Shown piece by piece: positions 21,464 through 39,700 of a DNA stretch of 64,000 bases; within the stretch, counting starts at the first letter, position 1, and each line of letters begins with the position of its first letter. Both the position numbers and the translations under genes were made by a program. The stretch is from contig CBDBCF010000001.1 of assembly GCA_965202985.1 (NCBI GenBank), positions 1,600,001 to 1,664,000 of the forward strand. The letters run 5' to 3'. The notes under the pieces were generated by a model. That model was not told the DNA's origin and made no database searches. It saw only the letters and a list, made by a program, of their open reading frames with translations. Source of the stretch: Longimicrobiales bacterium. GTDB taxonomy: Bacteria > Gemmatimonadota > Gemmatimonadetes > Longimicrobiales > Gaopeijiaceae.

Positions 21464-22218
21464 GTGAGAGTGGTCGGAAGACTAGGACGACCCGTGAGAT
21501 ACCGGACGCGATCCACGCAGACGCTTTGCGGACGGCCCGAATCAAGGGAGGAGCGAGGCCGGGGATCGCGCTAAGCAAGAATCGAATCTTGGCGTTGCTC
21601 GGGTTGCGCGAGGAATGGAAGCGGCCCGATGAGGTCTACTCCGACGAGGCTTGGGAAATCTGCATCATCTGGCGCAGCGGGTACGGCAAGGTCGAGATCG
21701 GCACCGCCGAGGACGGCAGCGTCGGATACTACGTCAGCCGCACGCTGAGCGAGAAGAGCGAGAAAGGGAGCTTCCTGGAGCACAGCCTGGGTGGCGACTC
21801 CGACGGAAGACGCGTCAAGTCGCTCGGCAGGGTTTCCGGTCGCGTCGAGGCGTTGAACATCCATGACAAGATGGTTTGCTACGTCTATCCGGTTTCCGAT
21901 CCCGTGCGCATCGCTTATCGTTTCGCCGAGAACATTCTCGATTCGAGTTGCGGCGGCCATCGGCCGCTACGTGACGTTAACGGTATGACAATTATGACTG
22001 GTTGCGATCCTTTGCGCGCCCCTTCGACTCGCGCAGAGTGCTCCTGGACGCCGTGTGACAGATTCTCGGCCAGATTCCTAGGTGAATCTGTCACAACTGA
22101 TGATCGACGGACGCGGAGGCTTGGTGGCTTTCGGAGTAGGGGGTTGTGGCGGACGCATGGAGTCGAGTATCTTGCGGCAGCGCACCTCGAAACCCCCGGG
22201 ATGGAGACACAAACATGA
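21460..22218 (+). CDS. hypothetical ORF or chimeric remnant at the island's left border
   Basis: GTGA overlap with symporter stop; GC falls along the ORF and the last third looks non-coding. Confidence 0.35.
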   Translation: MSESGRKTRTTREIPDAIHADALRTARIKGGARPGIALSKNRILALLGLREEWKRPDEVYSDEAWEICIIWRSGYGKVEIGTAEDGSVGYYVSRTLSEKSEKGSFLEHSLGGDSDGRRVKSLGRVSGRVEALNIHDKMVCYVYPVSDPVRIAYRFAENILDSSCGGHRPLRDVNGMTIMTGCDPLRAPSTRAECSWTPCDRFSARFLGESVTTDDRRTRRLGGFRSRGLWRTHGVEYLAAAHLETPGMETQT

Positions 22219-22268: not shown

Positions 22269-22754
22269 GTGTCGATCTCGTACACGGATCAACAGATCAA
22301 GGAGATGCTGGCGGAGCACAAGCAACCTCCAGTTGACACCTGTCTTCCGCTCAGCCTCACGCGCAAGCGCATCCACAACGAACGGAATCTTGATCTTCAA
22401 GGTGATTCGGGAGCGAAGTACCGGCTGATTCTGCGGCAGAACACGAGCAATGCCTTTGATTTCTCCGTCATTCTTGCTCGAGAACTGCCCGGATCCGGCG
22501 ATGTGTTTCGTCTCAGGCGACATAATGGCAAGGGCCATGAGCACAAGAACAAGATCGAGGGCGACGTCGTCTACGACCATCATATCCATTATGCTACTGA
22601 GAGATACCAGAAACGTGGCTTCGACGAAGACGGCTATGCGGAAGCAACCGATCGATATAGCACCATTGACGAAGCTGTCGACTGCATGATCAAGACTGGC
22701 AACATCACCATTCTTCCGGCCGTCCAACGGGAACTATTCTGGGGAGCCATCTAA
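22269..22754 (+). CDS. DUF6978-like protein, copy A (alternative start 22215)
   Basis: [13 protein letters not shown]...HHIHY; same motif order as 35796..36251. Confidence 0.7.
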
Positions 22755-23548
22755 TGACAAGAGAATGCATCGAGGCGGAGTTTAGGCAGAAGGTGGCGGC
22801 AGAGATCCGCATCGCACCTGAGGGTGTCGACAGATATCGCGTATTTACGCCCTTTCAGTTTGATGACGGAGACCGTTTCTCGATCGTCTTGAAGCGAGAG
22901 AAGGCGCAATGGCTGTTGTCGGACGAGGCACATACATACATGCACATGAGCTACGATATTGATGTCGACGAGCTGCATAAAGGTCGGCGCAAGGCACTCA
23001 TAACCAAAGCACTCACGATGTTCGGCGTCGAGAATCGAAATGGAGAGCTCGTTATCGATGTAGCGAAGCGCGACTACGGCGAATGTCTCTATTCGTTCGT
23101 GCAGGCGTTGCTGAAGATATCAGATGTATCCTATGTGACGCGTCCGAGAACAAAGTCTGCGTTTGCCGATGATTTTCGTGACTTGTTGTCGGAAGTAGTT
23201 CCAGTAGACCGCCGAGACTTCGAATGGCATGATCAAGAGCGCGACCCAAAGGGGAAATACACCGTTGATTGCCGGATCAACGGGGCGCATCCGCCGCTTG
23301 TCGTGCATGCACTCCCGAACGACGGTCGAACCCGAGATGCGACGATCACGCTGCTGACGTTCGAGAAATGGGGAATGCCGTTTCGGTCGCTGGCAATCTT
23401 TGAAGACCAAGAATCAATCAGCCGAAACGTACTGGCACGGTTCAGCGATGTTTGCGAAAAGCAATTCTCAAGCTTGTCTGCCGGTCGCTCTCGCCTTTCT
23501 CGTTTCCTGGAGCCGTACCTGGAGACGCGGGCCAAAGGCGCACCGTGA
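22754..23548 (+). CDS. DUF1828-domain protein with C-terminal restriction-endonuclease-like (DUF1829-like) region, copy A
   Basis: [23 protein letters not shown]-terminus; TAATG coupling upstream and GTGA coupling to hsdM. Confidence 0.75.
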
Positions 23549-25701
23549 CCCACGACCAGCTGGGCTGGATCGCCAACTATATCTGGGGCATCGCCGACGA
23601 CATGCTCCGGGACCTGTGGGAGCGTGGCAAGTACCGGGACGTGATCCTGCCCATGATCGTGCTCCGCCGACTGGACGTAGTGCTGGAGCCAACCAAGCAG
23701 GCGGTGCTGGAACGGAAGGCGATGCTGGACCAAGCCGGCGTCGCCAACCAGGACGACGGACTGCGCGCCGCGGCGGGCCAGGCGTTCTACAACTCGTCCC
23801 CCTTCACCATGCAGGACCTGAAGGCGCGAGCCAGCCAGCAGCAGCTCCGAGCCGACTTCGAGGCCTATTTGGACGGCTTCTCGCCCAACGTCCAGGAGAT
23901 CATCGACAACTTCGAGTTCCGCAACCAGGTCTCACGCCTTTCCAGGGCCGACGTGCTGGGATCGCTGATCGAGAAGCTGACTTCGCCCGACGTGAATCTG
24001 GGGCCGGAGCCAGTGCGCAAGCCCAACGGGACCGTCAAGCACCCCGGCCTCGACAATCACGGCATGGGCACGATCTTCGAGGAGTTGGTGCGGCGCTTCA
24101 ACGAAGAGAACAACGAGCAGGCCGGCCAGCACTGGACGCCGCGCGACGCCGTGCAGCTCATGGCTAAGCTCGTCTTTCTGCCGGTGGCGGACGAGATCAC
24201 GCCTGGCACCTACTTGCTATACGATGGTGCCTGCGGAACCGGCGGAATGCTGACCGTGGCTGAGGAGACGTTGCAGGCGCTGGCCGAGGAGCGCGGCAAG
24301 AAGGTGACCACGCACCTGTACGGCCAGGAGATCAGCGCCGAGACCTACGCGATCTGCAAGGCCGACCTGCTCCTGAAGGGCGAAGGCGAGGCGGCCGACA
24401 ACATCGTGGGCGGTCCCGAGCACTCGACCCTGTCCAACGACGCCTTCCCCGACAAGGAGTTCGACTTCATGCTGTCGAACCCGCCCTACGGGAAGAGCTG
24501 GAAGAGCGACTTGCAGCGCATGGGTGGCAAGCGCGACATGCACGACCCCCGCTTCGTGATCCAGCACGGCTCCGACCCCGAGTTCTCGCTTGCGACCCGC
24601 GTCAGCGACGGCCAGATGCTCTTCCTCGCCAACATGCTGAGCAAGATGAAGCGGGACACGCCGCTGGGCAGCCGGATCGCCGAGGTCCACAACGGCAGCT
24701 CGCTCTTCACCGGCGGCGCGGGCCAAGGCGAGAGCAACATCCGCCAGTGGATCATCGAGAACGACTGGCTGGAGGCGATTGTGGCGCTCCCGCTGAACAT
24801 GTTCTACAACACCGGCATCGCGACCTACATCTGGCTTCTGACCAATCGCAAGGCCGAGCATCGCGTCGGCAAGGTCCAGCTCATCGACGCCACGCAGTGG
24901 TTCACGCCCCTGCGGAAGAACCTGGGTAAGAAGAACTGCGAGCTGTCGGAAGACGACATCCAGCGCGTATGCGACGTGTTCTCGGCGTTCGAGGAGACGG
25001 AGGAGTCGAAGATCTTCGACAACGACGCCTTCGGGCACCGCAGGGTGACCGTCGAGCGCCCGTTGCGGATCGACGGCGCGGAACCCGAGCGCGTCTACAA
25101 GGCCGCGGAGATCAAGCGGCTGAAGGAGGATGGCGAGCGCGACCCGGAGGCGGCACCGGTGATTCGGCGGGCGTGGAAGAAGGGCGTCGAAGCCGATCCG
25201 CTGGCGGGCCGGTTCGAGGCTACCGTGGACGGCGCGCCAGCAGTCGTGGAGTACGAGCCGGACCCCGACTTGCGAGACACCGAGCAGGTTCCTCTGACCG
25301 ACGACGGGGGCGTGGAGGGCTTCCTGCGCCGGCAGGTCCTGCCTGAAGTGCCCGACGCCTGGTACCGTCCCGACTCGATGAAGACGGGGTACGAGATCAA
25401 CTTCACCCGGCACTTCTACAAGCCGAAGCCGATGCGGTCGCTGGCGAAGATTCGGGGGGACATCCTAACCACCCGGCGGCGGGCGGACGCGTTGCTGGCT
25501 AGCCTGGTGGCCGAGTCCCAAGCAAAGTCCTACGGGGCACGATTGCGGATCTACGTGGACACGAGCGTCGTGGGCGGCTGCTACGACGAGGATTTCCAGG
25601 GGCCCTCGCGCCGGTTGTTCGAGGCGTTCGTTCGCGGGGATTACACGCTACTTTTGTCGCAACTGACCACTGACGAGCTACAGCTAGCAGCCCGTGGATA
25701 A
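23545..25701 (+). CDS. hsdM: type I R-M methyltransferase subunit with an in-frame C-terminal PIN fragment
   Basis: [33 protein letters not shown] and [11 protein letters not shown], then [14 protein letters not shown]; the stop lies inside the IS end. Confidence 0.95.
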
Positions 25702-27216
25702 ACGGGTTTGGCGCGTGCGCGACGGAACTTGGCGGGACACGGGCGTTTACCGGGCTCTCGACGGCGCGAACGCGCGGAATTCGCGGAATTGGGCTCGAAG
25801 CGGCCCCAGGAGGCGCTCGAGCGGCCCGGGAGCGGCCAATGGGCGGCAAAATCGGCGCAAAACGCGGGATGTGGCACCCGTCGCGCAGGAATCGAGCACA
25901 GCTTGCGCTGCGGCGGGGCGGCCCTGCAGGCCCCGAGGCGTGCCGACGCCGAAGCGTCTTCGCATGAGCAGTCCGAGGTTGAAGGCGGCGACGTGAATCA
26001 GCATCCGCTTGCGGATGTCCTCGTGGCCGCGAACGTGCACGCGGCGAAGCCCGCCCGTCTCCAGCAGGTGCGCGAACGAGCGCTCGAGCTTCTCGCCCCG
26101 CATCCTCAGCAGCGCCTTGCCGCGCTCGCCCCGAATCCGCCGCCGGTTCGCGTAGACCGGCTTCTGGGCTTCCTTGTTCTGCTTCCAGCTCCGCCGACCG
26201 CGCTCGGGCTCGCTCACGTAGCCGCGCAGCCCGCGGTCCTCCAACTCCGTCATCGTCCTGTTCGAGTGATAGCCCTTGTCGCACACCACTTCCGCCGCCC
26301 CAGCACCCAGCTCCGCCAGCCGCCGCTCCGCCTCGTCCAGCGTCTCCGGCAGCGACGCCGCGTCGCCCCCGTCCGTCGTCTGCACCGTCACGCCCACCAC
26401 CGCGCCCGACTCCAGGTCCACCGCCTGCTCCAGCTTGTGACCAAGCCGCGTGCGCCCGTCCTTCATCTTCGTGATCCGCGCCTCCGGGTCCCCCGGATGC
26501 ACCCACTCCGCGTTCGACCCCTTCTTCGGACGCCTCCGGTCCAGCTTCGCCAACTCCGCGCGCGTCGGCGTCTCGATCCCCGACGCCCGCGCCAGCTCCC
26601 GCAGCCACGCCTCGTAGCCCGTGCCCGCGTCCCGACGCACGATCGAGCGCATCGCCGCGTTCGCCTCCAAAGTCGTCGAGTCCACCCCCAGCGTCCCGCC
26701 CCCCAGCAGCCCCGAGTCGTCCACCAGCCGCAGCACGCGCGCGAACACCGCGACGTGCGCCTCCACGCTCAGCCGCTTGCGCGTCTTCGACAGGCTCGAA
26801 TGGTCCGGCGGGTTCCTCGTCAGCTCGTACCCCAGGAACGCCCGCACCGAAAACGAGTCCCTGCACCGCCAGGCGATGCCCCGCTCCGACGAGATGCCCT
26901 CCAAGTACCCCACCATCAGCGCCCGGAAGTACACACTCGGAGGAACTCCCGGCCGACCCACGTTGCCCGCGTAGAACTCGGCGCACGCCTCCTCCGCGAA
27001 CTCGTCGAACCCGTCCTCCCGCAACAGCTTGTCCAGCGCGCGGTAGAACGGATGCTCGGTCACGCTGATCTCGCTGGTCGCCACGAACAGCGCCTCCTGG
27101 CGCACGCTCGGACGCTTGCCCAACGCCATCGCCGTCCTCCTTCCAGGGAATCGTCGCCTCCCTCCAATCTAACCCCTATCCCCAACGCCGCCCGGAAGGA
27201 CTTTATCCACGGGCTG
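25688..27216 (-). mobile_element. insertion sequence (IS1182/IS5-like), 1529 bp
   Basis: Perfect 15-bp terminal inverted repeats CAGCCCGTGGATAAA/TTTATCCACGGGCTG; CTAG duplicated at 25684-25687 and 27217-27220. Confidence 0.93.
25747..27129 (-). CDS. DDE transposase (DUF772 N-terminus)
   Basis: GRPGVPP, SERGI, PDHSSLS, VDSTT, CDKGY and ERSFAHL motifs. Confidence 0.92.
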   Translation of the reverse strand: MALGKRPSVRQEALFVATSEISVTEHPFYRALDKLLREDGFDEFAEEACAEFYAGNVGRPGVPPSVYFRALMVGYLEGISSERGIAWRCRDSFSVRAFLGYELTRNPPDHSSLSKTRKRLSVEAHVAVFARVLRLVDDSGLLGGGTLGVDSTTLEANAAMRSIVRRDAGTGYEAWLRELARASGIETPTRAELAKLDRRRPKKGSNAEWVHPGDPEARITKMKDGRTRLGHKLEQAVDLESGAVVGVTVQTTDGGDAASLPETLDEAERRLAELGAGAAEVVCDKGYHSNRTMTELEDRGLRGYVSEPERGRRSWKQNKEAQKPVYANRRRIRGERGKALLRMRGEKLERSFAHLLETGGLRRVHVRGHEDIRKRMLIHVAAFNLGLLMRRRFGVGTPRGLQGRPAAAQAVLDSCATGATSRVLRRFCRPLAAPGPLERLLGPLRAQFREFRAFAPSRAR

Positions 27217-27498
27217 CTAGCACGTCCAGACGTGAGAGCGACGATCCAGCGCGTTCCTGACTCTCACGTCGAGCGAAGCAGCTCGCCCAAGCCTATGTCC
27301 AGGCGGGAGCCCTGGCCAAGTCCATGAATTCCGACGCCCTGCATATTGCCCTGGCTACGTTGGCCCGGGCAGACTTCTTGACGAGCTGGAACTTCAAGCA
27401 CATCGTTAATCGGAAGCGGAGTCGCATCTGCAATGCCGTCAACTTGACGCGAGGCCATTCACCCATCACCATCCGTGCACCATGGGAGATCGAACATC

Positions 27499-27702
27499 AT
27501 GAGTAGCACCGACAGCAAGCCCTTCAGCTACGTCCGTCATCTCCGCGAGATACGAGACGAAAACAACAAGAAGATGGAAGGCATGAGCTACCGCGAACTC
27601 ATGGACTGGCTCAATTCGAAGGAGTACACCGACCCGACTCTCCGCCGATGGGCCGCCAAGTGCCGCCAAGCAGAGGCCGCGCTGGATAGGTCTCCACGAT
27701 GA
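27499..27702 (+). CDS. small putative antitoxin/partner of the PIN domain
   Basis: 67 aa overlapping the PIN stop; FSYVRHLREIRD..MS..E motif recurs at ~28200-28290. Confidence 0.6.
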   Translation: MSSTDSKPFSYVRHLREIRDENNKKMEGMSYRELMDWLNSKEYTDPTLRRWAAKCRQAEAALDRSPR

Positions 27703-27754
27703 CCCAGCGGGCTCGGGCCAAGAACCCACTGACCGACGCACTCGTCACTGGGGA

Positions 27755-28332
27755 ATCGGAGGGCCTGATGAACGCAATCGTTCCAAACCCCACACAGTTT
27801 CGTGAGCCCACGCCCCTCCGTAGCTCACACTCCTCCTGTCCGTGCGGTCGTTACGGCGTTGGAAGACGAGCGATACGAGGTGAAGGCCGTGCTGTCGCGA
27901 GTCCCTGACGCCCACACCGAGTTCCTCGCCGAGACCCCGGCGGCTATGGAACTGGTTGACGCGTACGTTCGCGTGGGCGCTATGGCCGAATCGTCGCGGT
28001 CCCACGCGTTGCACTTCGCCCTAGCCACACTGGCCAAGGCCGATATCCTGGCCAGCTGGGACTACAGGAACATTGTCAACGTCAACCGGATTCAAGACTG
28101 CAACTACGTCAATGTCGCTCAGGGCCAGCGTCGATTGATGGTCCATACGCCGCTGGCGTTAGACCTGTGTGCGTCGTGCGATGCTTCCGGATCCGCGTCT
28201 TTTAGCAACGTCAAGCTGTTGCGCGAAGTACGAGATACGATTTCCAAAGAGATCGCGGACATGAGCTTTGAGGAGAAAAGACAGTGGGAAGCATCCAGGT
28301 TGCCACCGACCCCGCGTTGCGCAAACTCATGA
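27755..28332 (+). pseudogene. second, degenerate PIN domain fused to an antitoxin-like segment
   Basis: RVPDAHTE..HALHFALATLAKADILASWDYRNIVN then FSNVKLLREVRD..MSFEE; N-terminal DTSV motif is missing. Confidence 0.7.
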
Positions 28333-28402
28333 GGCGGATTGCGTCAGCGGGGCCATCCACGCCTCGTCGCAAACTTAGACAGAGGCGAAAGGATGATCCG
28401 TC

Positions 28403-29752
28403 GTGACCAAATGGCTCCGAGACATCCCAGGGCACTGGACAGTCGCTCCTGTCAAGCGGCATTTCAATGTACGACTTGGCAAGCAGCTGCAGAACGATCG
28501 GCTTGCGTCGAGCGACCGGCGGGTGAGCTACCTGAAAGCGAAGCATGTACAGTGGCACTCGACACACACCGACGATCTGCCGCAAATGTGGGCAAGCCCA
28601 TGCGATATCGAACAATTCGGAGTCCGAAGTGGTGACCTTCTCGTCTGTGAAGGGGGCGAAGGTGGTCGATGCACGGTCGTCACAGACCCCGGCGATCAGT
28701 GGATTATCCAGAACGCTCTTCACCGCGTGCGACCGAGCGATGAGGAGCTGCGACGTGACAATTCGGCCAACTTGTGGCTCCAATTTGTGTTACGTGCTGT
28801 CGCTTCCACCGGATGGCTCGACGCGATCAATAACAAGGCAACCATTGCGCACTTCACGGTAGACAAGTTCAATGCATTGATGATTCCAATACCTCCTGCG
28901 GCAGAGCAAGGCGCGCTAGTTGTTTACCTACAACACGAAATGGCCAAGATTGACGCCTTGATCCGCAAGAAGGAAACCCTGGTCGACAGACTCGAGGAAC
29001 ACCGCACAGTCCTCATCAGCAGAACAGTGACGCGAGGACTTCCATTCACCGAAGCAAGAAGGGCTGGATTCGACCCAGATCCAAGACTCAAGTTGAGCGG
29101 AGTAGAGTGGCTGGGGGAGGTGCCTGAACACTGGGAAGTAAAAAGGGGAAAATACATATTCGATGTTGTCGACATTCGATCCATCACAGGACATGAGGAA
29201 CTCTTGACTGTGTCGTCAAAGCATGGTGTTGTTCCGAGAGCGTCCTCCGATGTTTCGGTAACGATGTTTAGGGCCGAATCTTATGTTGGGTCCAAACTGT
29301 GCTGGCCAGGTGACTTGGTGATCAACAGCTTGTGGGCTTGGGGGTGCGGGTTGGGAGTTTCGCCACATCACGGAATAGTAAGCTCGGCATATGGAGTATA
29401 TCGTTTGCGTCGTTGTTATCGGGAATACGCCGGTTACGTCCATTGGTTAGTTCGGTCACATGCGTTCCAAAGAGAACTGCAGGTCCGATCACAAGGCATA
29501 TGGGTTTCCAGACTACAGCTGACCGATGAGTCGTTTCTGGCCGCTTACTTTTCGTTGCCTCCCGATCGAGAACAAGCGGCAATCGCGGAGTACTTGGGTC
29601 ACGCTACCCAAGTCATCGATAAGGCCATTTCGCTCGCACGCAAAGAGATCAACCTGCTCCGCGAGTACCGGACGCGCCTGATTTCCGACGTGGTCACCGG
29701 AAGGGTGGACATGCAGGGGGTCTCTGGTATGGATCAGGAGACAACAGCTTGA
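28403..29752 (+). CDS. hsdS: type I R-M specificity subunit
   Basis: Two TRDs with IPPAAEQ/LPPDREQ, central SGVEWLGEVPEHW, terminal LISDVVTGRVD; low GC. Confidence 0.93.
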   Translation: MTKWLRDIPGHWTVAPVKRHFNVRLGKQLQNDRLASSDRRVSYLKAKHVQWHSTHTDDLPQMWASPCDIEQFGVRSGDLLVCEGGEGGRCTVVTDPGDQWIIQNALHRVRPSDEELRRDNSANLWLQFVLRAVASTGWLDAINNKATIAHFTVDKFNALMIPIPPAAEQGALVVYLQHEMAKIDALIRKKETLVDRLEEHRTVLISRTVTRGLPFTEARRAGFDPDPRLKLSGVEWLGEVPEHWEVKRGKYIFDVVDIRSITGHEELLTVSSKHGVVPRASSDVSVTMFRAESYVGSKLCWPGDLVINSLWAWGCGLGVSPHHGIVSSAYGVYRLRRCYREYAGYVHWLVRSHAFQRELQVRSQGIWVSRLQLTDESFLAAYFSLPPDREQAAIAEYLGHATQVIDKAISLARKEINLLREYRTRLISDVVTGRVDMQGVSGMDQETTA

Positions 29753-30890
29753 GCACCTCACGGTACGTAGCCCTCGTGGACCAGCTGCGCCGTCGGTCAT
29801 TCGAGACCAAGTGGCTGGGCCAGAGATCAGCCCGTGAGCTTCTGCGGAACGGCCTACGTGCGGATCGGCAGCAGCAAGGCCGAGCTGTCGAAGTACCCGG
29901 ACAGGGCCCGGACGATCTGGGCCCGCGAACTCGACTGGCCGGCCCAGCCCTGCAACGGTGTGGGGCTTTCCGTCCTTGAGCCGGTGACGCTGGCGAAGGC
30001 ACGCGAGCGATTCTTGGAGCGGCACCCGGCCCAGAAGCACGACATCCAAGGTTGGGACGACTCGACGTTTCTTCACAAGACCCGGCTCTTCAGGGACGGT
30101 GCGGCGACGAACGCGGCATTGCTCCTGCTGGGGCGTCCCGAGTCCGCCAGCCTGCTTGAGGACGGGATCGCCTGGCTGTTCTGGATACTCAAGGACGCGG
30201 ACAACCGGCCGCTCGACAGCGCGAATCGAACTTCCCTTTCTCGATGCGGGCGACCGCGTGCTGCAGCGCATACGAAACCTGCCCGTTCGGTTCATGCCGA
30301 AAGGAACGGTGACGCCGAAACAGTTCGACCAGTAACGACGCCTGGGTGGTTCGCGAGACCGTTCACAACGCCATTGCGCACCAGGACCACTATCGGAAAT
30401 GCCGTGTTCCCGTGGGTCGAGTTTCCCGATCGCGTGATCGTGAACAACGCCGGGGCCTTCCTGCCCGGCGACGTGGAAAACGGCGATCCGCCGAAACGCA
30501 CCGGGGATTCGCTATCAGAGCCGCTGCTGGCGGGTGCCATGTACGCATTTGGCGTCATCGAGTCCCAGGGAGGCGGCATTCGGAAGATGTTCGAGACGCA
30601 GCGCGAACGGTTCTTCCCGCTCTCCGACTACGACCTGGCCGAGTACGGTTACGTGGAGGTGACGATTCACGGCCGGCTGTTCGGGGAATCGTACTCGCGG
30701 CTGCTGATGGAGCGGCCGGACCTGGACTTGGAGCAGGTCATGCTCCTGAATAAGGTGCAGAAGGGGCTTCCCATCAGCCCCAAGGCGCATCTGGAACTGG
30801 AAGCCGAAGGACTGGTTCGCGGCTCGCATCCGCATCACGAGGTCACCGACCCGAATCTGGACGTGACGGCCCCGAGTGCCCACAAACGGC
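29749..30890 (+). pseudogene. AlbA_2 (Schlafen-like)/RecG-C-terminal ATP-binding protein, internally deleted and frameshifted
   Basis: ETKWL start, YVRIGSS, TNAALLLLG, RE.VHNAIAHQDY, EFPDR..V.NAG and GGGIRKMF spread over several frames; cut by IS at 30891. Confidence 0.75.
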
Positions 30891-32862
30891 CTAGACCGAA
30901 GTTCCGGAGTCTCTAATGCCTGTAAGTCGTTGCGTGGTGGCGAGATAGATCATGCTGGGGTTGTACGCTACTGGGTACGTCGGCTCATGGCTTGACGCCG
31001 AGGAGTCGGAAGGCGCGGTCCTGGACCGGCGTGGGAACGGTGAGCACATCCACGGCCGCGGCTCCCTTGGGCTGGACGCGGTTGCGGGCCAGCGTGCCCA
31101 AGTCTTTGAGCAGGGTCTGGAAGCTGTGGACGGGCAAGCCGTCGGAGGTGCGCTTCCGACCGCTGGCCTTGGCCCGGGCCGCGGGCGACGACCGCGCGAG
31201 CGCCACGGGAGACGGTCGCGCCTCGGCGTCGGTCGCCGCTTCGTGGTCGTCGAAGAGCATGGGAGCCAGCGCGCGGCGCATGTGCCACTCGACGTAGTAG
31301 GCGAGCATGCACAGGAACACGTGGGCGCGCACGCGGTCGGCGAGCCGGTGGTGGACGGGTCGCACCTTCAAGTCCACCGTCTTGAAGCTGCGGAACGCCC
31401 GCTCGATCCGTCCCAGGCCCTTGTAGGCGCGCACGGCGTCGGCGGCGCTCAGCTTCCGCTTCGCCACGTTGGTGCGCAGCACGTACACGCCGTCCAGCGC
31501 CGCTTCCCGGGCGATCCGCGCTTCGTTGCGGGCATACGAGAACGAGTCGCGCGTCGCGCGCACCTCGAAGTGCTTGCCCACCTTGCGCGACCGCAGCGCG
31601 CGGTCCGCACGCACGGCGATCCGCGCCTCGCCGCGCAGCGGCCGCCGCTCCCGCCGCACGGCTTGCGCCACCTGCGCGAGCTTCGCCTCCGTGTCGGCCA
31701 GCAGCTCCCTGCGCTTGCGCGCTCGCTCCTCGGCCAGCAACGGGTTCCTGCACACCACCAGCCGCTCGCCCGGATACAGCGCCGGCGCCTCGATCTCCGC
31801 CAGGTCCTGCTCGTCGAACAGCGACAGCTGCAAGCAGCCCTCGGCTGCCAGCTTCTGCACTTCGGGCGCGCGCAGCGCCGTGATCCAGTCCAGCCCGGCC
31901 GGCTCGACCTCTTCTCGGATGCGGGCGCTCGTCAGCAGTCCGCGGTCGCCCACCACCACGACCTTCGTCAGTCCGAAGCGACCGCACAGCTTCTGCAGCT
32001 GACCGCCCAGCACGCCCGGGTCCGCCGTGTTCCCCTCGAACACCTCGACCGCCACCGGACAGCCGTCGGCCGCGCACAGCAGCGCGAAGACGATCTGCAG
32101 CGAGCCCCGCTTGCCGTCGCGCGAATGCCCTCGCTTCGCCAGCGGACAGCAACGGGGCCCTCGAAGTACGACGACGTCACGTCGCACAGCACCAGCGAGC
32201 CGTCCTGCAGGCGCCTCCGCGCCAGTCCGCGCTCGATCTTGTCCTGCCTTGCCAGCAGCCAGTCCATCGCCCGGTACAGCTCGTCGGCGTCCGCGTCCTC
32301 GACATCCAACTCCTCGGCCAGCGTGCTGGTCAGCGTCTCGCGGCCCAAGCCCCGAGCCGTCGCAGCTTCGAGCCGGGGTCCAGTATGCGCGCCAGCGCCA
32401 TGGCCGCGGCCAGCGACCGGTTCCTCGAGGGCTTGCGGTCCAGCAGCCGCTCGAAGCCCAGCTTGCGGGCGGCGCCGACGACGGCTGCGACGTGGCCGTG
32501 GGGACGCGAGCGCTCGATGCGGAAGACGTCGTCGATCGACGGCAGCGCGACGCCGCCCCTGAGCAGGACGCGGAGCCCCTCGACGAGCTCGTCGGGCCAG
32601 CGGGAAAGGTTGGCCAGCGTCTGCTTGCGCACCTTGCCGCCTTCGCGGTAGGAGCGCCGCAGCAAGACGGCGGGCGGCGAGTTCCGGTTGGGCACGCGTT
32701 CGATGTACATGGGCATGACCGTAGCGTCAGAACGAAATCATGTCAACTCCAACCAAGATCGCTACATGGGTACATACGACGATGGCAGAAAGCCCGCAAG
32801 TCCTTCAACTGCAACGACTTGCGACGCCAGAACCGGCGAATTCCTGCGGAACTTCGGCCTAG
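30891..32862 (-). mobile_element. IS1634-family insertion sequence
   Basis: Terminal IRs CTAGACCGAAGTTCCG / CGGAACTTCGGCCTAG (1 mismatch) plus a subterminal AAGTCGTTGC motif at both ends. Confidence 0.85.
30985..32716 (-). pseudogene. IS1634-family transposase with two frameshifts (~32350, ~32160)
   Basis: MYIERVPNRNSPPAVLLRRSYREGGKVR, DVTSSYFEG, GDRG, IERAFR and VRAHVFLCMLAY in three successive frames. Confidence 0.85.
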
Positions 32863-32879
32863 ATGAGTCGCCACCGGAC

Positions 32880-33237
32880 CTGGGCTACCAACACTATGTG
32901 GACCTGGTGCCCGCCGGGCCGAGGACGACGATGTTGTGGCCGTCGTCGATCCAGTCGCCTCCGTTGGCGAGGACGCGGACCAAGCGTCCGACAGCCCGGG
33001 CAGGCGGTCGAAGTCGAAGTTGTCGAGCGTCTTGCTGGTGGGCAGCCCGGCCCCGGTGGGGTGGCGCTCGAGGCGACGGCGCGCGCGGTCGGCGAGTTCC
33101 TGGTCGGCGAGATGGGCGAGGTAGCGGTGATGGGACCAGCCTTCGCGCTCGGCCCGTTGGGCCAGCGACCTCCACATGTCCTTCATGGTCGGCACGCCCA
33201 GCTCCCGGAGCATCCGGTCGACTTCGGCTCTGTCCAC
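32880..33237 (-). pseudogene. istB: IS21-family helper ATPase IstB remnant
   Basis: AEREGWSH..YL..L...E, KTLDNFDF, then a frameshifted NIVVLGPAGT degenerate Walker A; no istA present. Confidence 0.8.
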
Positions 33238-33266
33238 GACGGAGGGCTGCTGCTAGATTGTGGTGG

Positions 33267-35009
33267 CTAGCGGCGGTCCATTTCAGAGCGGAGGGAGCGT
33301 GGTGAAGAAGCAGTACCAAGCGTGGACGCAAGACCAGTTGTACTTGATGCCGCCGTCGATGCGGGAGTGGCTTCCGGCCGACCACTTGGTGTGGTTCGTG
33401 CTGGACGTGGTGTCGGAGCTGGACATCACGGCGATCGAGGCTGCGGTGCAGGAGAAGGACGCTCGGGGCCAGCGGCCGTACGATCCGCGGATGATGGTGG
33501 CGCTGCTGGTGTACTCGTACAGTTCGGGCGTGTACTCGTCGCGGCGGATGGCGCGGGCGTGCCGCGAGAACGTGGCGTTCCGGGTTCTGACGGGGAACGT
33601 CGAGCCTCACTTCACGACGATCAACGAGTTCCGCCGCGTGCATCGCAAGCACTTCGAGCGTTTGTTCGTCGAGGTGCTGAGGCTGTGCGGCGCGGCGGGG
33701 CTGGTGAAGTTGAGGCACGTGGCGGTGGACGGGACGAAGGTCGAGGCGAACGCGAGCAAGCACAAGGCGATGAGCTACAAGCGCCTGGTGGCGGAGGAGA
33801 AGCGGCTGCGCGCGGAGGTGGCGCGGATGCTGGCGGAGGCGGAGGCGGCGGACCGGGCCGAGTCGGAGCGGACGGAGGCGAGCGGCGCCGACGGGCTGCC
33901 GGAGGAGTTGAGTCGGCGCGAGGACCGGCTGGCGCGGATACGGGAGGCGAAGGCGCGGCTGGAAGAGGCGGCGCGGCTGACGCGTGCGCGCAAGCTGCGG
34001 ACGCAGGCGGCGGGCATGGAGCGGACGGCGGCGGGCCACGGCAACCCGGCGGTGGCGAAGGGGCTGCGGACGCGGGCGGCTGGATGCCGGGCGCGGGCGA
34101 ACGTGTTGGACCCGCAGGGCGCGCAAGCAGCGGAGCCGCCGGAGCGGGTGCCGGGGCTGTTGCCGCCAAAGGAGACGCCGGCGACGCCGGAGGCGCTGCC
34201 GACGGACGGGGCGCAGCGCAACTTCACGGACCCGGAGAGCCACGTCATGATGGGGACGCACGGGTTCGTGCAGGCGTACAACGCGCAGCTGGCGGTGGAC
34301 GACGCCGCGCAGGTCGTCGTGGCGCACGGGGTGACGAACCAGCCGGCCGACTGCCGCAACTTGGAGCCGGTGATCGAACGCGCCAAGGAGAACGTAGGCG
34401 AAGCGCCGGCGAACGCGACCGCCGACGCCGGCTACTGGAACCCGGAAGTCGAGGCGCGAGCGCGGGCCCTGGGGACGGAAGCGTGGGTGGCGACGGCGCG
34501 CAAGCCCGCGGAGGCGCCGTCGGACGCGGGCGCGACCGCGCACGACGAAGCGTCGCCCCGGGAGCGGATGCGGGCTCGCGTGACGAGCGAGGACGGACGG
34601 GCGCTGTACGCGCGCCGCAAGGCCGTGGTCGAGCCGGTGAACGGCCAGATCAAGCAGGCGCGCGGCTTCCGGCGCTTCTCGTTCCGAGGACTCGAGGCGG
34701 TCGAGGCCGAGTGGGCGCTGGTGTGCGCCTGCCACAACCTGCTCAAGCTGTTCGCCAACCGCCCGCAACAGGGGCGCCGTGCGCCCAAACGCCGCGCTCC
34801 GCACGCCCTGCGCCCCTCTTTTCGCCCGAATTCGGCCTCTCGGCGCCCTTCGGACGCCCGCCGACGCCCAAGACTGCCCATCGATCTGCTCGGCACACGC
34901 CGACGTGCCCCCTCCAACATGCGCGCCCGCCTCCAACGTGTCCCGCCAACACGCCCCGCCCGGCTTCGCTTCGCCCGCCGTGCGCTACGCCCTACGGGCT
35001 CCTAGCGGC
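33267..35009 (+). mobile_element. IS1182-family element (ends uncertain)
   Basis: Transposase flanked by CTAGCGGC at 33267 and 35002; no convincing inverted-repeat pair found. Confidence 0.6.
33302..35005 (+). CDS. IS1182-family transposase
   Basis: LMPPSMREWLPADHL, YDPRMM, VDGTKVEANASKHK, NFTDPES, ADAGY and VEPVNGQIK motifs. Confidence 0.93.
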   Translation: MKKQYQAWTQDQLYLMPPSMREWLPADHLVWFVLDVVSELDITAIEAAVQEKDARGQRPYDPRMMVALLVYSYSSGVYSSRRMARACRENVAFRVLTGNVEPHFTTINEFRRVHRKHFERLFVEVLRLCGAAGLVKLRHVAVDGTKVEANASKHKAMSYKRLVAEEKRLRAEVARMLAEAEAADRAESERTEASGADGLPEELSRREDRLARIREAKARLEEAARLTRARKLRTQAAGMERTAAGHGNPAVAKGLRTRAAGCRARANVLDPQGAQAAEPPERVPGLLPPKETPATPEALPTDGAQRNFTDPESHVMMGTHGFVQAYNAQLAVDDAAQVVVAHGVTNQPADCRNLEPVIERAKENVGEAPANATADAGYWNPEVEARARALGTEAWVATARKPAEAPSDAGATAHDEASPRERMRARVTSEDGRALYARRKAVVEPVNGQIKQARGFRRFSFRGLEAVEAEWALVCACHNLLKLFANRPQQGRRAPKRRAPHALRPSFRPNSASRRPSDARRRPRLPIDLLGTRRRAPSNMRARLQRVPPTRPARLRFARRALRPTGS

Positions 35010-35034
35010 TCATTGAGCATCTCCTTCTGCTCCT

Positions 35035-35799
35035 TTACGCCACGAGGCTCTTCACCGCATCTTCCCGGGCCGACCAGAGAATCGTCCGCACACCGTAGCT
35101 GTCGAGTGCCCTGTCGACGGACGGTGGTACGGATCCGCCTGTGTCGTTGAGGATGGCGTAGGCGGCCGCGTTGGGGTCGCGGACCTCCTTGGTGTCCAGC
35201 CATGCGAAAGCCATCGTCTGCGCCGTGTTGCGGTCCGGTCGGTTGATCGACCTGCATAGGCGTTCGGGTTGATCCGGCGATTTCGGGATGACGAAATCGA
35301 ACTTGTGGTCGTAGCCGCTCTTGCCCGAGAACTTGACATTCGGCGTGTATCTGACGCTGGATGTGTCGAGCCACGTGGTCACGTCTTCGTGAAACAGGCT
35401 CTCCACTGTCGGCGATGCCAAGTAGAACATGTCGGAAACAGCGAGCATGGCTTGAAGAAGGCTGTGCTTGCGGAGTCCGAAGTCTTCGGGGGAGGTCGCC
35501 ACCTGCAAAGCACCCGCAACCTCTTGAACTCCAAAGCCGTTGAGTGTTTCCTGCAGCAACGAGCGACGCTTGTCGCTGGTTGCCTCGAAGCCAGCCTGTG
35601 CCAAGTCGTTGAGCACGTAGCCGTCGTCTGTAAGGATGAGGTCGTCACCATGCTTTCCGGCATACAACTGAAGGCAGTCGTTATGGCGGTCGAGGTAGGG
35701 AGTCGTGATCTCGACGTAATCGCCGACTTCCCGGATCGCCGTCTGCTCCTGCAACCAGTTCCAGTACCGGTCCAAGAGGCGTTGGACCTCACCGATCAT
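35035..35799 (-). CDS. DUF1828/DUF1829-domain protein, copy B
   Basis: EITTPYLDRHND..LTDDGY, GKSGYDHKFDFVIP, AWLDT; ATGA coupling to the upstream gene. Confidence 0.82.
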   Translation of the reverse strand: MIGEVQRLLDRYWNWLQEQTAIREVGDYVEITTPYLDRHNDCLQLYAGKHGDDLILTDDGYVLNDLAQAGFEATSDKRRSLLQETLNGFGVQEVAGALQVATSPEDFGLRKHSLLQAMLAVSDMFYLASPTVESLFHEDVTTWLDTSSVRYTPNVKFSGKSGYDHKFDFVIPKSPDQPERLCRSINRPDRNTAQTMAFAWLDTKEVRDPNAAAYAILNDTGGSVPPSVDRALDSYGVRTILWSAREDAVKSLVA

Positions 35800-36251
35800 G
35801 CCGGCTCCAGACCCTGTTCGATGGCTGGACGGTCAACGACGTTGCAGAAGCCCATAAAGTCCGTAAGCATGGTCCATGGATCCGTGGTATTCGTGACAAA
35901 CCTGTCGAATGGCACCTCATAGGCCCATTTGTCCCCGAAGCCCTCTTGGTATAGGTGAAGATGGGGTGACATGACCGGCTGGCCATCCGGGTTGCGGTGC
36001 GGCTTCCCGCCAAAATCTAGACGAGCAAGAACGACAGTCTTTCGAGCGCGGTTCTGGTAGCTGCCCTTAGTCATGTCGATGCTGTTTCGAGTGACGTCGA
36101 GCAAAAACTTCTCGCACTTGTCCGTGCTCGTCAAGGGAATCACGATCCGCCCGCCAAGGCTCGGGTACTTCCATACCTTGGCGTCCACACGACGCTTGGG
36201 AGTCCCCAGCAGTCGGTCGGCATCCGCTTGGGTCATCAGGTTCGTTGGCAT
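35796..36251 (-). CDS. DUF6978-like protein, copy B
   Basis: LARLDFGGKPHRNPDG...PHLHLYQEGFGDKWA...FCNV. Confidence 0.78.
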   Translation of the reverse strand: MPTNLMTQADADRLLGTPKRRVDAKVWKYPSLGGRIVIPLTSTDKCEKFLLDVTRNSIDMTKGSYQNRARKTVVLARLDFGGKPHRNPDGQPVMSPHLHLYQEGFGDKWAYEVPFDRFVTNTTDPWTMLTDFMGFCNVVDRPAIEQGLEPA

Positions 36252-36544: not shown

Positions 36545-39500
36545 ATGCCTACCGACACCACCGAACGCGGCCTCGAACGCCTGATCTGCGTCGCAATGAC
36601 GGGCTCGCCCTGCGATCCAGGGGCTATCCCCGGCGGCGACAGCACCGGCAGCACCGCCAGCGACGGTCGCGCATTCCCCGCCAAGGTGCGGGAGCCTCGG
36701 CGCATCTACGACGCGGGCGCGCCCAGCGGCCAACCGCGCGGCTCCGGCTGGACCTGCGGCAACCCGCGCGACTACGACCGCGAGCACTACGTGGATATGG
36801 CGCAGCTCGCGGCGTTTCTCTCCGACACGCAGCCCGAGACAGCCGAAGCCCTGGCCTTGCGCGGAAACGGCCCGGCCCGCCGCAAGTTCCTGGCTCGCGT
36901 CCGGGGCCAGATCAGCAGGCGCGGCACCATCGACGTGCTCCGCCACGGCGTCAGGCACGGCCCCCGCGAGATCAGCCTCTTCTACGGCACGCCGTCTCCG
37001 GGCAACGAGGCGGCCAAGACGCGCTACGACGCCAACCGCTTCACGGTCACGCGACAGCTGCACTACAGCCTGGACCAGCCGGGGCTGGCGCTGGACTTGG
37101 CGCTGTTCGTCAACGGGCTGCCGGTGGTCACCTTCGAGCTCAAGAACCGGCTGACCAAGCAGACGGTGCACGACGCGGTGCGTCAGTACGCGCGCGACCG
37201 CAGTCCTCGGGAGCGGCTGTTCGAGCTTGGGCGGTGCATGGCGCACTTCGCGGTGGACGAGCAACGCGTGCGGTTCTGCACCCACCTGTGCGGCAAGGAC
37301 TCGTGGTTCCTGCCCTTCGACCGGGGGCACGCGGGCGGCGCGGGCAATCCTCCGAACCCCGCCGGCCTTCGCACCGCCTATCTGTGGGAAGAGGTGCTGG
37401 CCCCGGACAGCTTGGTCGGCATCGTCGAGAACTACGCGCAGGCGCTGGCCGAGAAGGACCCAAAGACGGGACGCCGCCGCAAGACGCAAATCTGGCCCAG
37501 GTACCATCAACTGGACGTAGTGCGGCGGCTGCTGGACGACGCTCTCCGTCACGGTCCCGGACGGCGCTATCTGATCCAGCACTCGGCGGGCAGCGGCAAG
37601 TCCAACTCCATCGCTTGGCTGGCGCACCAGCTGATCGGTCTGGCCCAGCGCGGCGAGCCCGTCTTCGATGCGGTCGTGGTCGTCACCGACCGGCGCATTC
37701 TGGACCGGCAGATCCGCGACACGATCAAGCAGTTCGCGCAGGTTGGCGCGACCGTCGGCCACGCCACGCGCTCCCGCGATCTGCGCCGGTTCATCGAGGG
37801 CGGCAAGAAGATCGTCGTCTCCACGGTGCAGAAGTTCCCGTTCATCCTGGACGAGATTCGGGAGCAGCAGGTCGGCCGCACCTTTGCCATCGTCATCGAC
37901 GAGGCGCACTCCAGCCAAGGAGGCCGACAGTCGGGGGCCATGTCGCAGGCGCTCTCGGGGTCGGGGAGCGCGGGCGGCGCAATGGCCGAACGGGACGCCG
38001 CCGCCGGAGACGCCACCGCCAACGCGGTCGCCGACGCCGACGGCGATACGGACACGCTTGAAGACCGGATCAACCGCATCGTCGAATCCCGTCGAATGTT
38101 GCCCAACGCCAGCTACTTCGCGTTCACGGCGACGCCCAAGAACAAGACGCTGGAGCTCTTCGGGACGCCCGTGCCGCAGCCCGGCGACGATCCGCCGAAG
38201 CGCCGTCCCTTCCACGCCTACACCATGAAGCAGGCGGTCCAGGAGGGCTTCATTCTGGACGTGCTGCAGCACTACACGCCCGTGCGCAGCTACTACCGGC
38301 TGGTCAAGAGCGTGGAGGACGACCCCCTCTTCGACGCCAATCGCGCGGCGAAGAAGCTGCGGCGGTACGTCGAGGACCACGACCACGCGATCCGCTTGAA
38401 GGCGGAGATCATGGCGGATCACTTTCACAACCAGGTGGTGGCAAAGCGCAAGATCGGCGGCAAGGCCAGGGCGATGGTCGTAACGAGCAGCGTCCGGCGC
38501 GCCATCCAGTACTACGACGCCGTTCAAGCCTACCTGTCCGCGCGGAAGAGAGGGTACAAGGCGCTTGTGGCGTTCTCCGGCGAGCGCGAACACGGCGGCG
38601 CGACGGTTTCTGAGGCGTCGCTGAACGGATTCCCCGAGTCGCAGACCGCCGACAAGTTTCGCGAGGACCCGCACCGTATCCTGGTGTGCGCCGACAAGTT
38701 CCAGACCGGCTACGACGAGCCGTTGTTGCACACGATGTACGTGGACAAGCCGCTGTCGGGTGTGCGCGCGGTGCAGACGTTGTCGCGCCTGAACCGGGCC
38801 TGTCCTGGCAAGCACGACGTGGCGGTGCTGGACTTCGCGAACGACGAGGATGCGATCAAGGCGGCGTTTGAGCCGTACCACCAGACGACGATCTTGTCGG
38901 GCGAGACCGACCCCGACAGGCTCCACGACCTGCAGAGCGCCCTGGACGCTTGCCAAGTCTACGACCCGGACAGCGTGGACGAGTTCGTGGAGCTGTATCT
39001 GGGCTACGCGGGCCGGGAGCGGCTCGACCCGATCCTTGACGGGAGCGTGGAGGCCTACGTGAACGACCTGGACGAGGACGGCCAAGTGGAGTTCAAGGGG
39101 AAGGCCAAGACGTTCCTGCGCACCTACGACTTCCTGTCGTCGATCCTGCCGTACGCGTATCCGCCTTGGGAGAAGCGGTCGATCTTTCTGCACTTTCTGA
39201 TTCCCAGGCTGCCGGCGCCCAGGGAAGAAGACCTGTCGCGGGGCATTCTGGAAGCGATCGACATGGACAGCTACCGGATCGAAAAGCAGGCGGTACGGGC
39301 GATCTGGATGAGCGAAGAGGAAGAAGAGATCGATCCCGTGCCCGTGGGCGGCGGCGGCCATGCCCGCGAACTCGAACTGGACATGCTGTCCGCGATCATC
39401 GCCCAGTTCAACGAGCGGTGGGGCGGAGACGGCCAGTGGCGCGACGAGGACCGCGTGCGTCGCTTGATCACCGAGGACTTGCCCTCCGCGGTCCGGGCCG

Positions 39501-39700
39501 ACGAATCCTTTCGCAACGCGCAAGAGCATTCCGACGGCCAGAACGTGCGGATCGAGCACGACAAGGCGTTGAAGCGCGCGGTCAACGGAACCATCGAAGA
39601 CGACATGCAGTTCTTCAAGCGCTTCTCCGACGACGAGTCCTTCAAGCGCTGGGTGGCGGAGAGCATCTTCCGGCTGGTGTCGTCGTCGGGCGGTCCTTAG
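36545..39700 (+). CDS. hsdR: type I R-M restriction subunit
   Basis: D..LFVNGLP..FELK nuclease motif, HSAGSGKS Walker A, DEAH, FTATP, QTGYDEP and VQTLSRLNR. Confidence 0.96.
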   Translation: MPTDTTERGLERLICVAMTGSPCDPGAIPGGDSTGSTASDGRAFPAKVREPRRIYDAGAPSGQPRGSGWTCGNPRDYDREHYVDMAQLAAFLSDTQPETAEALALRGNGPARRKFLARVRGQISRRGTIDVLRHGVRHGPREISLFYGTPSPGNEAAKTRYDANRFTVTRQLHYSLDQPGLALDLALFVNGLPVVTFELKNRLTKQTVHDAVRQYARDRSPRERLFELGRCMAHFAVDEQRVRFCTHLCGKDSWFLPFDRGHAGGAGNPPNPAGLRTAYLWEEVLAPDSLVGIVENYAQALAEKDPKTGRRRKTQIWPRYHQLDVVRRLLDDALRHGPGRRYLIQHSAGSGKSNSIAWLAHQLIGLAQRGEPVFDAVVVVTDRRILDRQIRDTIKQFAQVGATVGHATRSRDLRRFIEGGKKIVVSTVQKFPFILDEIREQQVGRTFAIVIDEAHSSQGGRQSGAMSQALSGSGSAGGAMAERDAAAGDATANAVADADGDTDTLEDRINRIVESRRMLPNASYFAFTATPKNKTLELFGTPVPQPGDDPPKRRPFHAYTMKQAVQEGFILDVLQHYTPVRSYYRLVKSVEDDPLFDANRAAKKLRRYVEDHDHAIRLKAEIMADHFHNQVVAKRKIGGKARAMVVTSSVRRAIQYYDAVQAYLSARKRGYKALVAFSGEREHGGATVSEASLNGFPESQTADKFREDPHRILVCADKFQTGYDEPLLHTMYVDKPLSGVRAVQTLSRLNRACPGKHDVAVLDFANDEDAIKAAFEPYHQTTILSGETDPDRLHDLQSALDACQVYDPDSVDEFVELYLGYAGRERLDPILDGSVEAYVNDLDEDGQVEFKGKAKTFLRTYDFLSSILPYAYPPWEKRSIFLHFLIPRLPAPREEDLSRGILEAIDMDSYRIEKQAVRAIWMSEEEEEIDPVPVGGGGHARELELDMLSAIIAQFNERWGGDGQWRDEDRVRRLITEDLPSAVRADESFRNAQEHSDGQNVRIEHDKALKRAVNGTIEDDMQFFKRFSDDESFKRWVAESIFRLVSSSGGP

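Follow-up and report, generated by a model that had tools for sequence, protein, structure and literature searches.

Two divergent DUF6978-like/DUF1828 gene pairs in a type I restriction-modification locus are candidate toxin-antitoxin-like anti-phage modules

Two coupled gene pairs in one restriction-modification locus

The window analysed here, 64,000 nt of contig CBDBCF010000001.1 from the Longimicrobiales bacterium assembly GCA_965202985.1, contains a type I restriction-modification (R-M) locus that carries two copies, A and B, of a two-gene pair, in which a small gene is followed by a large gene whose product bears a DUF1828 domain. Coordinates without a contig or locus handle are positions in this window. 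We consider it somewhat probable that each pair is a type II toxin-antitoxin (TA)-like anti-phage module, with the small protein as effector and the large protein as its inhibitor. The two pairs and the R-M genes among which they lie are arranged as follows.

22269-22754, plus strand: copy A small gene (P0001), 161 aa, GTG start, DUF6978-like subfamily A; predicted effector
22754-23548, plus strand: copy A large gene (P0002), 264 aa, DUF1828 N-domain and divergent C-domain; predicted inhibitor
23545-25701, plus strand: hsdM (type I methyltransferase), GTG start at 23545; its frame continues into the first part of a PIN-like domain interrupted by an insertion sequence
28403-29752, plus strand: hsdS (type I specificity subunit), from profile matches
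35035-35799, minus strand: copy B large gene (P0004), PDC-M24B, 254 aa, type III secretion system (T3SS)-chaperone/YbjN fold at about 12-130 and PD-(D/E)XK fold at about 132-254; predicted inhibitor
35796-36251, minus strand: copy B small gene (P0003), PDC-M24A/DUF6978, 151 aa; predicted effector
36545-39700, plus strand: hsdR (type I restriction subunit), from profile matches

An earlier sequence-only reading of this DNA had described two gene pairs of the same coupled architecture, and all four open reading frames (ORFs) lie where it placed them. The copy A genes overlap by TAATG and the copy B genes by ATGA, and the coordinates bear out both the GTGA overlap of the copy A large gene with hsdM and the divergence of copy B from hsdR, the two being separated by 293 bp in which no sigma-70-like promoter was found. 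The GTG start of the copy A small gene agrees with the start of its homologues. The G+C (GC) content of the window is about 70% and dips at about 21.5-31 kb and again at 35-36 kb; at third codon positions (GC3) the four pair genes have values of 0.61-0.77, compared to 0.87-0.90 for the flanking genes, hsdM and hsdR.

Copy B belongs to PDC-M24 and copy A to a divergent subfamily

The copy B small protein matches Pfam DUF6978 (141.5 bits) and the PADLOC PDC-M24A profile PDLC04538 (E 2.5e-51, residues 6-147), and its large protein matches DUF1828/DUF1829 and the PDC-M24B profile PDLC04539 (E 1.9e-98, residues 5-254). Copy B is a member of PDC-M24, a catalogued computational anti-phage candidate. 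The copy A small protein, in contrast, matches no PADLOC family at E<=1, scores 22 bits against DUF6978, which is below the cut-off of 29.6, and matches PHROG 27326 (E 3e-25), and the copy A large protein matches PDC-M24B over residues 17-147 only (E 1e-18) and DUF1828 (E 4.7e-22) without a DUF1829 match. Copy A is a separate, widespread and divergent subfamily whose small gene is missed by the PADLOC profiles. NCBIfam gave no meaningful match for any of the four pair proteins. The pair had been put forward as a candidate new defence system built from DUFs with no assigned function, and its newness is not supported: copy B matches PDC-M24A/B, a system already described, if only as a computational candidate, and such a match was something the sequence-only reading itself had counted against novelty; DUF1829 is also part of the validated DS-6/HipAD system.

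The two pairs are homologous, as had been proposed from shared motifs. The large proteins of copies A and B are homologous over their N-terminal 145 residues (BLASTP E 7e-11; profile-profile comparison 98%, E 1e-13), and the small proteins show a weaker homology that is above chance (BLASTP E 0.002; profile-profile 61%, E 8e-5, 136 columns). A profile built from diverse A small proteins scores B-type proteins at up to E 2.6e-8, the best of 600 shuffles reaching 0.009, and P0003 itself scores only 3.7 bits with it. Among the motifs proposed for the small proteins, L.R.(N/D)..G..H.N and H.H are found in both, but the first is really T...(I/A)..(M/L)L...K, one residue longer than given. For either gene, A and B fall into clades of their own (75/75 and 99/99 sequences) at an identity of about 20% (174 pairs), and the identity matrices of the small and large proteins correlate (Spearman 0.84 in A and 0.89 in B). 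As A and B are homologous and form separate clades, we therefore regard them as two old subfamilies that were captured separately, in agreement with the earlier suggestion of independent captures in place of a recent duplication. Local duplication was rejected, each window copy having far closer relatives elsewhere. Subfamily A accounts for 54 of 81 candidates found with a single sequence and for about 1,377 clusters at 50% identity found by profile, some of which may be B-type; B-type proteins number 2,597. Natural fusions of the small and large genes were considered and not used: both genes are joined in six of the eight longer matches, but every such fusion is represented by one sequence only and has a junction resembling a frameshift or deletion.

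A conserved histidine cluster in the small protein and the fold of the large protein

In the model of the copy B small protein (pLDDT, the predicted local distance difference test score, 88.8) the predicted order of elements is helix, beta-meander, H-x-N loop, H-x-H hairpin and again helix. Six residues are common to both subfamilies, namely K19, R77, H85, N87, H97 and H99 in B (78-80/80) and their equivalents K18, R84, H92, N94, H105 and H107 in A (90-93/93); judged by this conservation, the three histidines and the asparagine suggest a metal-dependent catalytic site. A PDB sequence search with the small protein gave no matches, the best match in a viral structure library was an uncharacterised phage protein at E 0.008, and an Atlas search returned only DUF6978 clusters and nothing once these were skipped. 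RelE/BECR, HNH and E2-like families, which had been taken as leads, are not among the listed structural matches (best Z 4.7), and an E2-like, RelE-like or TumE-like fold was unsupported by Foldseek against the PDB, the viral library, VIA, the PDB sequence search and Atlas, which does not make the fold new.

The large protein is a two-domain protein, and the chaperone/nuclease-fold character that had been guessed for it is upheld by structure comparison with the copy B model (pLDDT 88.9). Residues 12-130 match the T3SS-chaperone/YbjN fold (PA14_16140, 8q8o, Z 9.2, root-mean-square deviation (rmsd) 3.0, 104 aligned; 3cxj, Z 9.0; SycN-YscB, Z 8.5), and the C-domain matches the PD-(D/E)XK fold (AF1548, 1y88, Z 11.9, rmsd 3.0, 110 aligned; Can2, Z 11.1). 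The first two acidic positions of the nuclease motif are kept in both subfamilies (E138 in 73/80 and D168 in 70/80 B proteins; D140 in 55/55 and D172 in 54/55 A proteins). The (D/E)xK motif is absent from both: where the third core strand ends, neither an acid nor a lysine is conserved in the 80 B and 55 A proteins, and position 185 holds I/V/F/L/A in 80/80 B proteins and L/V/I in 55/55 A proteins. These motif positions were taken from alignments and secondary structure, not from superposition. D202, R207 and N218 are conserved in B. In the N-domain, the loop D37-R-H-N-D41 (DRHND) is conserved in 76-80/80 B proteins, and the corresponding loop of subfamily A is D38-G-D40-H41.

The predicted complex of the copy B proteins scored 0.74, the best of three controls scoring 0.00; 116 of 157 solved complexes attain the mark applied to this score, as do 2 of 215 mismatched pairs, rates that are only approximate for the alignments used. 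The model runs have at least 77% of contacts in common, with a partner pLDDT of at least 83. All confident contacts of the large protein are predicted within residues 25-70, where H39, N40 and D41 would touch R77, D79, H85, N87 and H99 of the small protein, with H39 contacting H85 and H99. The model places the DRHND loop of the chaperone domain over the small-protein histidines in what is predicted to be an inhibitor-over-active-site geometry, and a site shared by the two proteins is also possible. Because no solved relative of the small protein was found in the searches, recall of a known complex is unlikely.

Whole large genes stand without a whole small gene more often than the reverse

Pairing and gene context were analysed in the best 80 of 494 B-type loci (genomes) and the best 80 of 583 A-type loci (metagenomes), selected by the small gene. 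The large gene lies directly behind the small gene in 79/80 B and 73/80 A loci, no more than 155 nt of contig remaining in the seven A loci without it, and the best match of the partner is always of the cognate subfamily. To follow decay, 401 genomes were searched for the large gene and both small types, which yielded 42 loci including the four of this genome. Both genes are whole in 21 loci, and in 11 a whole large gene stands with a small gene that is broken or undetected, compared to no locus with a whole small gene lacking a whole large gene; both genes are broken in eight (one, L275, is ambiguous), one locus holds a small fragment alone and one lies at a contig edge. The 11 orphan-large loci show at least nine distinct lesions of the small gene, among them nonsense codons and frameshifts as well as one internal deletion, one truncation and complete loss, and the finding of 11/11 lesions in the small gene has p ~2e-5 if lesions are proportional to length, with the reservation that kin are not independent. 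With 11 orphan large genes and no orphan small gene, the small protein therefore appears to need the large protein and not the reverse. Among the 160 small-selected loci, the small gene is split and the large gene behind it whole or almost so in five (L042, L043, L050, L096 and L151), and both genes are split in one (L111).

Selection on the pairs and decay of their neighbours

A congeneric genome (G001) carries the same block of copy A, hsdM, inverted copy B and hsdR at 87-89% nucleotide identity amid different flanks, and a second one (G002) holds the half comprising copy B and hsdR, with a frameshifted small gene. The ratios of nonsynonymous to synonymous substitution rates (dN/dS) against G001 are 0.116 for the A small, 0.115 for the A large, 0.27 for the B small and 0.097 for the B large gene, alongside 0.20 for hsdM and 0.21 for hsdR. 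All four pair genes of the window are under purifying selection, and these values (rounded, 0.12, 0.12, 0.27 and 0.10) bear out the selection that the sequence-only reading had suspected. That reading had also stressed that the pairs are intact amid decayed cargo. The decay is real: an insertion sequence splits a PIN gene, the HATPase_c_4 gene is truncated and transposases are split. The pairs are not the sole intact genes, however, since hsdM, hsdS and hsdR are also open. The stretch between the two copies holds the following features in addition to hsdM and hsdS.

25683-27221, minus strand: insertion sequence with perfect 20-nt inverted repeats (25683-25702 and 27202-27221) and a DDE transposase at 25747-27129
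27264-27503, plus strand: rest of the interrupted PIN-like domain, located by tblastn with the G001 orthologue
27853-28152, plus strand: second PIN-like remnant, located by tblastn with the G001 orthologue
29819-30916, plus strand: truncated HATPase_c_4 (RecG-C-like) cargo gene, aligning only to residues 119-472 of the 567-aa G002 orthologue
30985-35005, no strand assigned: transposase debris, whole stretch, from ORFs and profile matches
30985-32716, minus strand: split DDE transposase, part of the debris
32743-33237, minus strand: istB-like fragment, part of the debris
33260-35005, plus strand: DDE transposase, part of the debris

The hsdM fusion is uninterrupted in G001 (816-aa orthologue), whereas the version at 23545-27503 in the window is cut by the insertion sequence; we take the fused domain to be PIN-like from its sequence motif and not from a profile match. 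Further PIN-like remnants lie downstream of the fusion in both this genome and G001. A repeat search found no island-bounding repeats, only insertion-sequence ends. The block common to this genome and G001 begins at 22124; a low-GC ORF at 21460-22218, behind a sodium:solute symporter gene and without a Pfam, PADLOC or NCBIfam match, falls outside it.

The pair is a mobile passenger of defence sites

This genome (G000) contains two more A-type pairs and four copies in all. One lies between type III res and mod at C1:1297.7 kb (L001:7608-8910; 1297.6-1298.9 kb) with both genes out of frame near their starts, and the other lies near a type II R-M pair at C1:1721.7 kb (L002:7717-9003; 1721.7-1723.0 kb) with a frameshifted small gene and a whole large gene. 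The former is whole in G001 (L178), pointing to decay or an assembly error in this genome. Weak tblastn matches at C1:663272 and C1:1201136 were judged not to be copies of the pair. The spread of the pair is patchy (28/401 genomes).

Scanning the two sets of 80 loci with 17 query proteins from these loci and this genome, covering type I and III R-M, BREX and Hma genes, detected at least one such gene in 48/80 B and 17/80 A loci, many A contigs being short, and on both sides of the pair in 32 B and 10 A loci (28/59 B and 7/17 A when restricted to loci with at least 3 kb on each side). As a control, 267 windows of 14.4 kb from this genome gave a match in 26, and the genome is by this count rich in DNA-modification defences. 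The typical B arrangement is hsdM-hsdS-pair-hsdR, and A-type pairs lie between brxC and pglXI or inside hmaABC. Copy B is inverted relative to hsdR in three congeneric genomes (this genome, G001 and G002), compared to 30/30 type I R-M-embedded relatives of the 80-locus set that are co-oriented.

The large gene also led to 29 viral loci, in 22 of which the pair is present, 12 of these with a same-strand repressor-like gene upstream (six are Pfam-checked queries); 18 annotated phage records match as well. A possible second TA pair, made up of two small genes, lies between the prophage repressor and the PDC-M24 pair in L217 (2934-3541) and L218. A literature search on transcription of prophage Lj965 gave nothing relevant among the matches listed. 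Relatives of the pair thus occupy type I and III R-M, BREX and Hma operons as well as sites behind prophage repressors, and from these contexts we conclude that the pair is a mobile passenger of defence sites and not an R-M subunit.

Stand-alone DUF1828 genes in phages

DUF1828 without the C-domain or the small gene occurs in 6/29 viral loci, one of which (L228) looks like a remnant. Clean ORFs of 125-132 aa with their own start and stop are found in L231-L235, on viral contigs in replication or lysis regions, amid methylase, VRR-NUC or lysozyme genes.

L231:2976-3371, stand-alone DUF1828 ORF
L232:3992-4387, stand-alone DUF1828 ORF
L233:3992-4390, stand-alone DUF1828 ORF
L234:3992-4369, stand-alone DUF1828 ORF
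L235:3974-4351, stand-alone DUF1828 ORF

The DRHND loop is intact in 5/5, and four of the proteins match 14/22 predicted interface residues, compared to 43-46% elsewhere (p 0.07-0.10 each), which is the level of full-length relatives. L231-L234 form one close group and the set therefore represents about two events. The dN/dS values among the phage single-domain genes (0.4-0.8) derive from 4-6 synonymous changes and are uninformative. The stand-alone proteins are possibly decoy antitoxins, and a tolerated truncation is as likely.

Discussion

The reading of each pair as a TA-like anti-phage module draws on the coupling of the genes, their obligate cognate pairing, selection, the folds of the large protein, the gene context and the direction of decay, to which the complex model adds a predicted interface; from these we infer toxicity, enzyme activity, a trigger and anti-phage function. 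In such a mechanism the small upstream protein would act as effector. It would be an enzyme built on a beta-meander, with the K-R-H-N-H-H cluster as its probable metal-dependent active site and, as a guess, nucleic acid or a nucleotide as its substrate. The N-domain of the large protein would dock its conserved D-x-x-x-D loop (DRHND in B) over the histidines of the small protein and inhibit the effector, and the C-terminal restriction-enzyme fold without (D/E)xK may bind nucleic acid as a sensor or autorepressor. Infection would free the effector, and the infected cell would be stopped. The R-M locus would be a landing site that has collected two old subfamilies, whose orthogonal pairs could coexist.

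Several observations weigh against this interpretation. The complex model covers copy B only, and the interface residues are just modestly more conserved than the rest (0.78 vs 0.68; 0.76 vs 0.64). The small protein shows no known toxin fold, Foldseek against the PDB giving no match at E<=0.001 and VIA a best Z of 4.7. Most of the 11 orphan-large loci belong to a single family and the loci are not independent, some of the missing small genes could be too divergent for detection, indel errors in metagenome assemblies are possibly behind some lesions, and a large gene that is useful alone would yield the same asymmetry. L052, from outside the 401-genome sample, keeps small residues 1-141/149, where an insertion sequence interrupts the gene, and the 6.8 kb downstream hold no large gene; in L152, a contig of 1.4 kb, the small gene is whole and the large gene split. 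The control windows for gene context all come from one genome, and the defence queries were drawn from the same loci. The analogy with the DS-6B protein of DS-6/HipAD, which otherwise speaks for the reading, as does the toxicity reported on deletion of the DUF3037 gene in a similar pair, extends to the C-domain only, DUF3037 and DUF1828 having no profile similarity. Searches of the literature for PDC-M24, the DUF names and the accessions found no test of the pair for toxicity, enzyme activity or phage protection.

The same complex could instead be an active enzyme, either a PD-(D/E)XK nuclease with a rearranged site (type IV-like or abortive) for which the small protein is a sensor or activator, or a metal site shared between three small-protein histidines and H39. 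We hold this to be rather unlikely, even though the fold matches active nucleases (AF1548 Z 11.9, Can2 Z 11.1), both subfamilies retain the first two acidic positions, D202, R207 and N218 are conserved in B, the model brings H39 into contact with H85 and H99, and orphan large genes keep a dN/dS of 0.12-0.17 in the five pairings that lack an intact partner locus. Neither subfamily has the (D/E)xK motif, with motif positions read without superposition, and if each subunit were harmless by itself, one would expect more orphan small than orphan large genes, the large gene being the bigger target, whereas the count is 0 vs 11. The polarity evidence, that is the direction of decay and the complex model, would serve equally for a pure addiction TA that stabilises islands and prophages without protecting against phage, and the pair does ride on mobile, transposase-rich islands and prophages, is patchy among the 401 genomes and sits in a block amid different flanking genes in G001. 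Addiction alone nevertheless seems quite unlikely to us: the pair is embedded co-oriented in four unrelated defence operons, with all defence genes on its strand in 31/32 B and 10/10 A flanked loci, the slot behind prophage repressors fits defence, and the frequent loss of the small gene alone shows that addiction is weak.

PrrC and PARIS provide a model for a guard that is triggered when phage anti-restriction proteins block R-M, and the sequence-only reading had cast the pairs as a TA or abortive-infection guard of this kind. The TA-like polarity in that proposal is favoured by the direction of decay and the complex model, but a dedicated guard of the adjacent type I R-M system is not borne out, and we judge it very unlikely. 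B-type pairs do lie between hsdM/hsdS and hsdR in 30/80 loci, copy A overlaps hsdM, and of the four copies in this genome, R-M genes enclose or adjoin three and the fourth is near a type II R-M pair. However, the pair occurs just as well within BREX and Hma operons, and behind prophage repressors too; close relatives of copy A lie in BREX (7 loci) and Hma (3 loci) and, among 80, none inside type I R-M, 32/80 B loci have no R-M, BREX or Hma neighbour, prophage copies occur without R-M, and copy B is inverted relative to hsdR in this genome, G001 and G002.

The pair is therefore neither a new system nor specific to type I R-M, and what is new is the evidence on polarity and mechanism. A wider version of the TA-like reading, which we regard as unlikely in its full form, is that PDC-M24 and the undetected A subfamily make up a large anti-phage TA class, with a histidine-cluster effector of unsolved fold whose active site is plugged by a T3SS-chaperone-fold domain, in which subfamilies stack without cross-neutralising and some phages carry a decoy chaperone domain. 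PDC-M24 is widespread, and this locus supplies two versions, orthogonal by prediction, with predictions for the toxin gene, the key residues on both sides and a candidate phage counter-measure. If true, this would add an effector fold not known before and give T3SS-chaperone-like domains a new role as antitoxins, and current defence annotation would be missing a whole subfamily (A).

Comparison with known systems

The PDC collection (Payne, Hughes, Fineran, Jackson 2024, bioRxiv 10.1101/2024.01.29.577857) consists of 145 candidates predicted computationally from genes lying within BREX, DISARM and type I R-M systems; for M24 the accessible text of that preprint gives no mechanism or test. A later preprint terms PDCs unvalidated (bioRxiv 10.1101/2025.01.08.631726). 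Copy B matches both PDC-M24 profiles end to end and has the R-M/BREX context of PDCs, whereas copy A has a small gene without a PDC-M24A match and a large gene matching in the N-domain only, and belongs to a separate clade.

DS-6/HipAD (PADLOC PDC-M66) is a validated defence system consisting of a HipA kinase and a DUF3037-DUF1829 protein predicted to bind the kinase and DNA (PMC13092281), and in a similar pair (Retron-Sda1) deletion of the DUF3037 gene is reported as toxic (PMC12548924). It resembles the present pair as a two-gene defence TA with a DUF1829-bearing partner, the C-domain of DS-6B being common to the large protein, but the pair has no kinase or DUF3037 match and its N-domain is DUF1828. 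Homology between DUF3037 and DUF1828 was considered and rejected (profile probability 0.6%). Separately, DUF3037 occurs in short open frames of 130-252 codons, apparently without DUF1829, in 9/151 genomes of this phylum (L276-L284).

With the PD-(D/E)XK nucleases AF1548, Can2/Card1, NucS and PspGI the large protein has in common the C-domain fold and the first two acidic positions, but unlike them it has neither the (D/E)xK motif nor a CARF or other nucleotide-sensing domain. TY-chaperone domains have been predicted to act as peptide-binding chaperones in anti-viral systems (PMC9503650), and residues 12-130 of the large protein match this T3SS-chaperone/YbjN fold. No secretion genes were found in the recurring neighbour clusters that were scanned, and, in contrast to the known members, the chaperone domain of the pair is joined to a restriction-enzyme fold and would, by prediction, lie over the histidine cluster of its partner.

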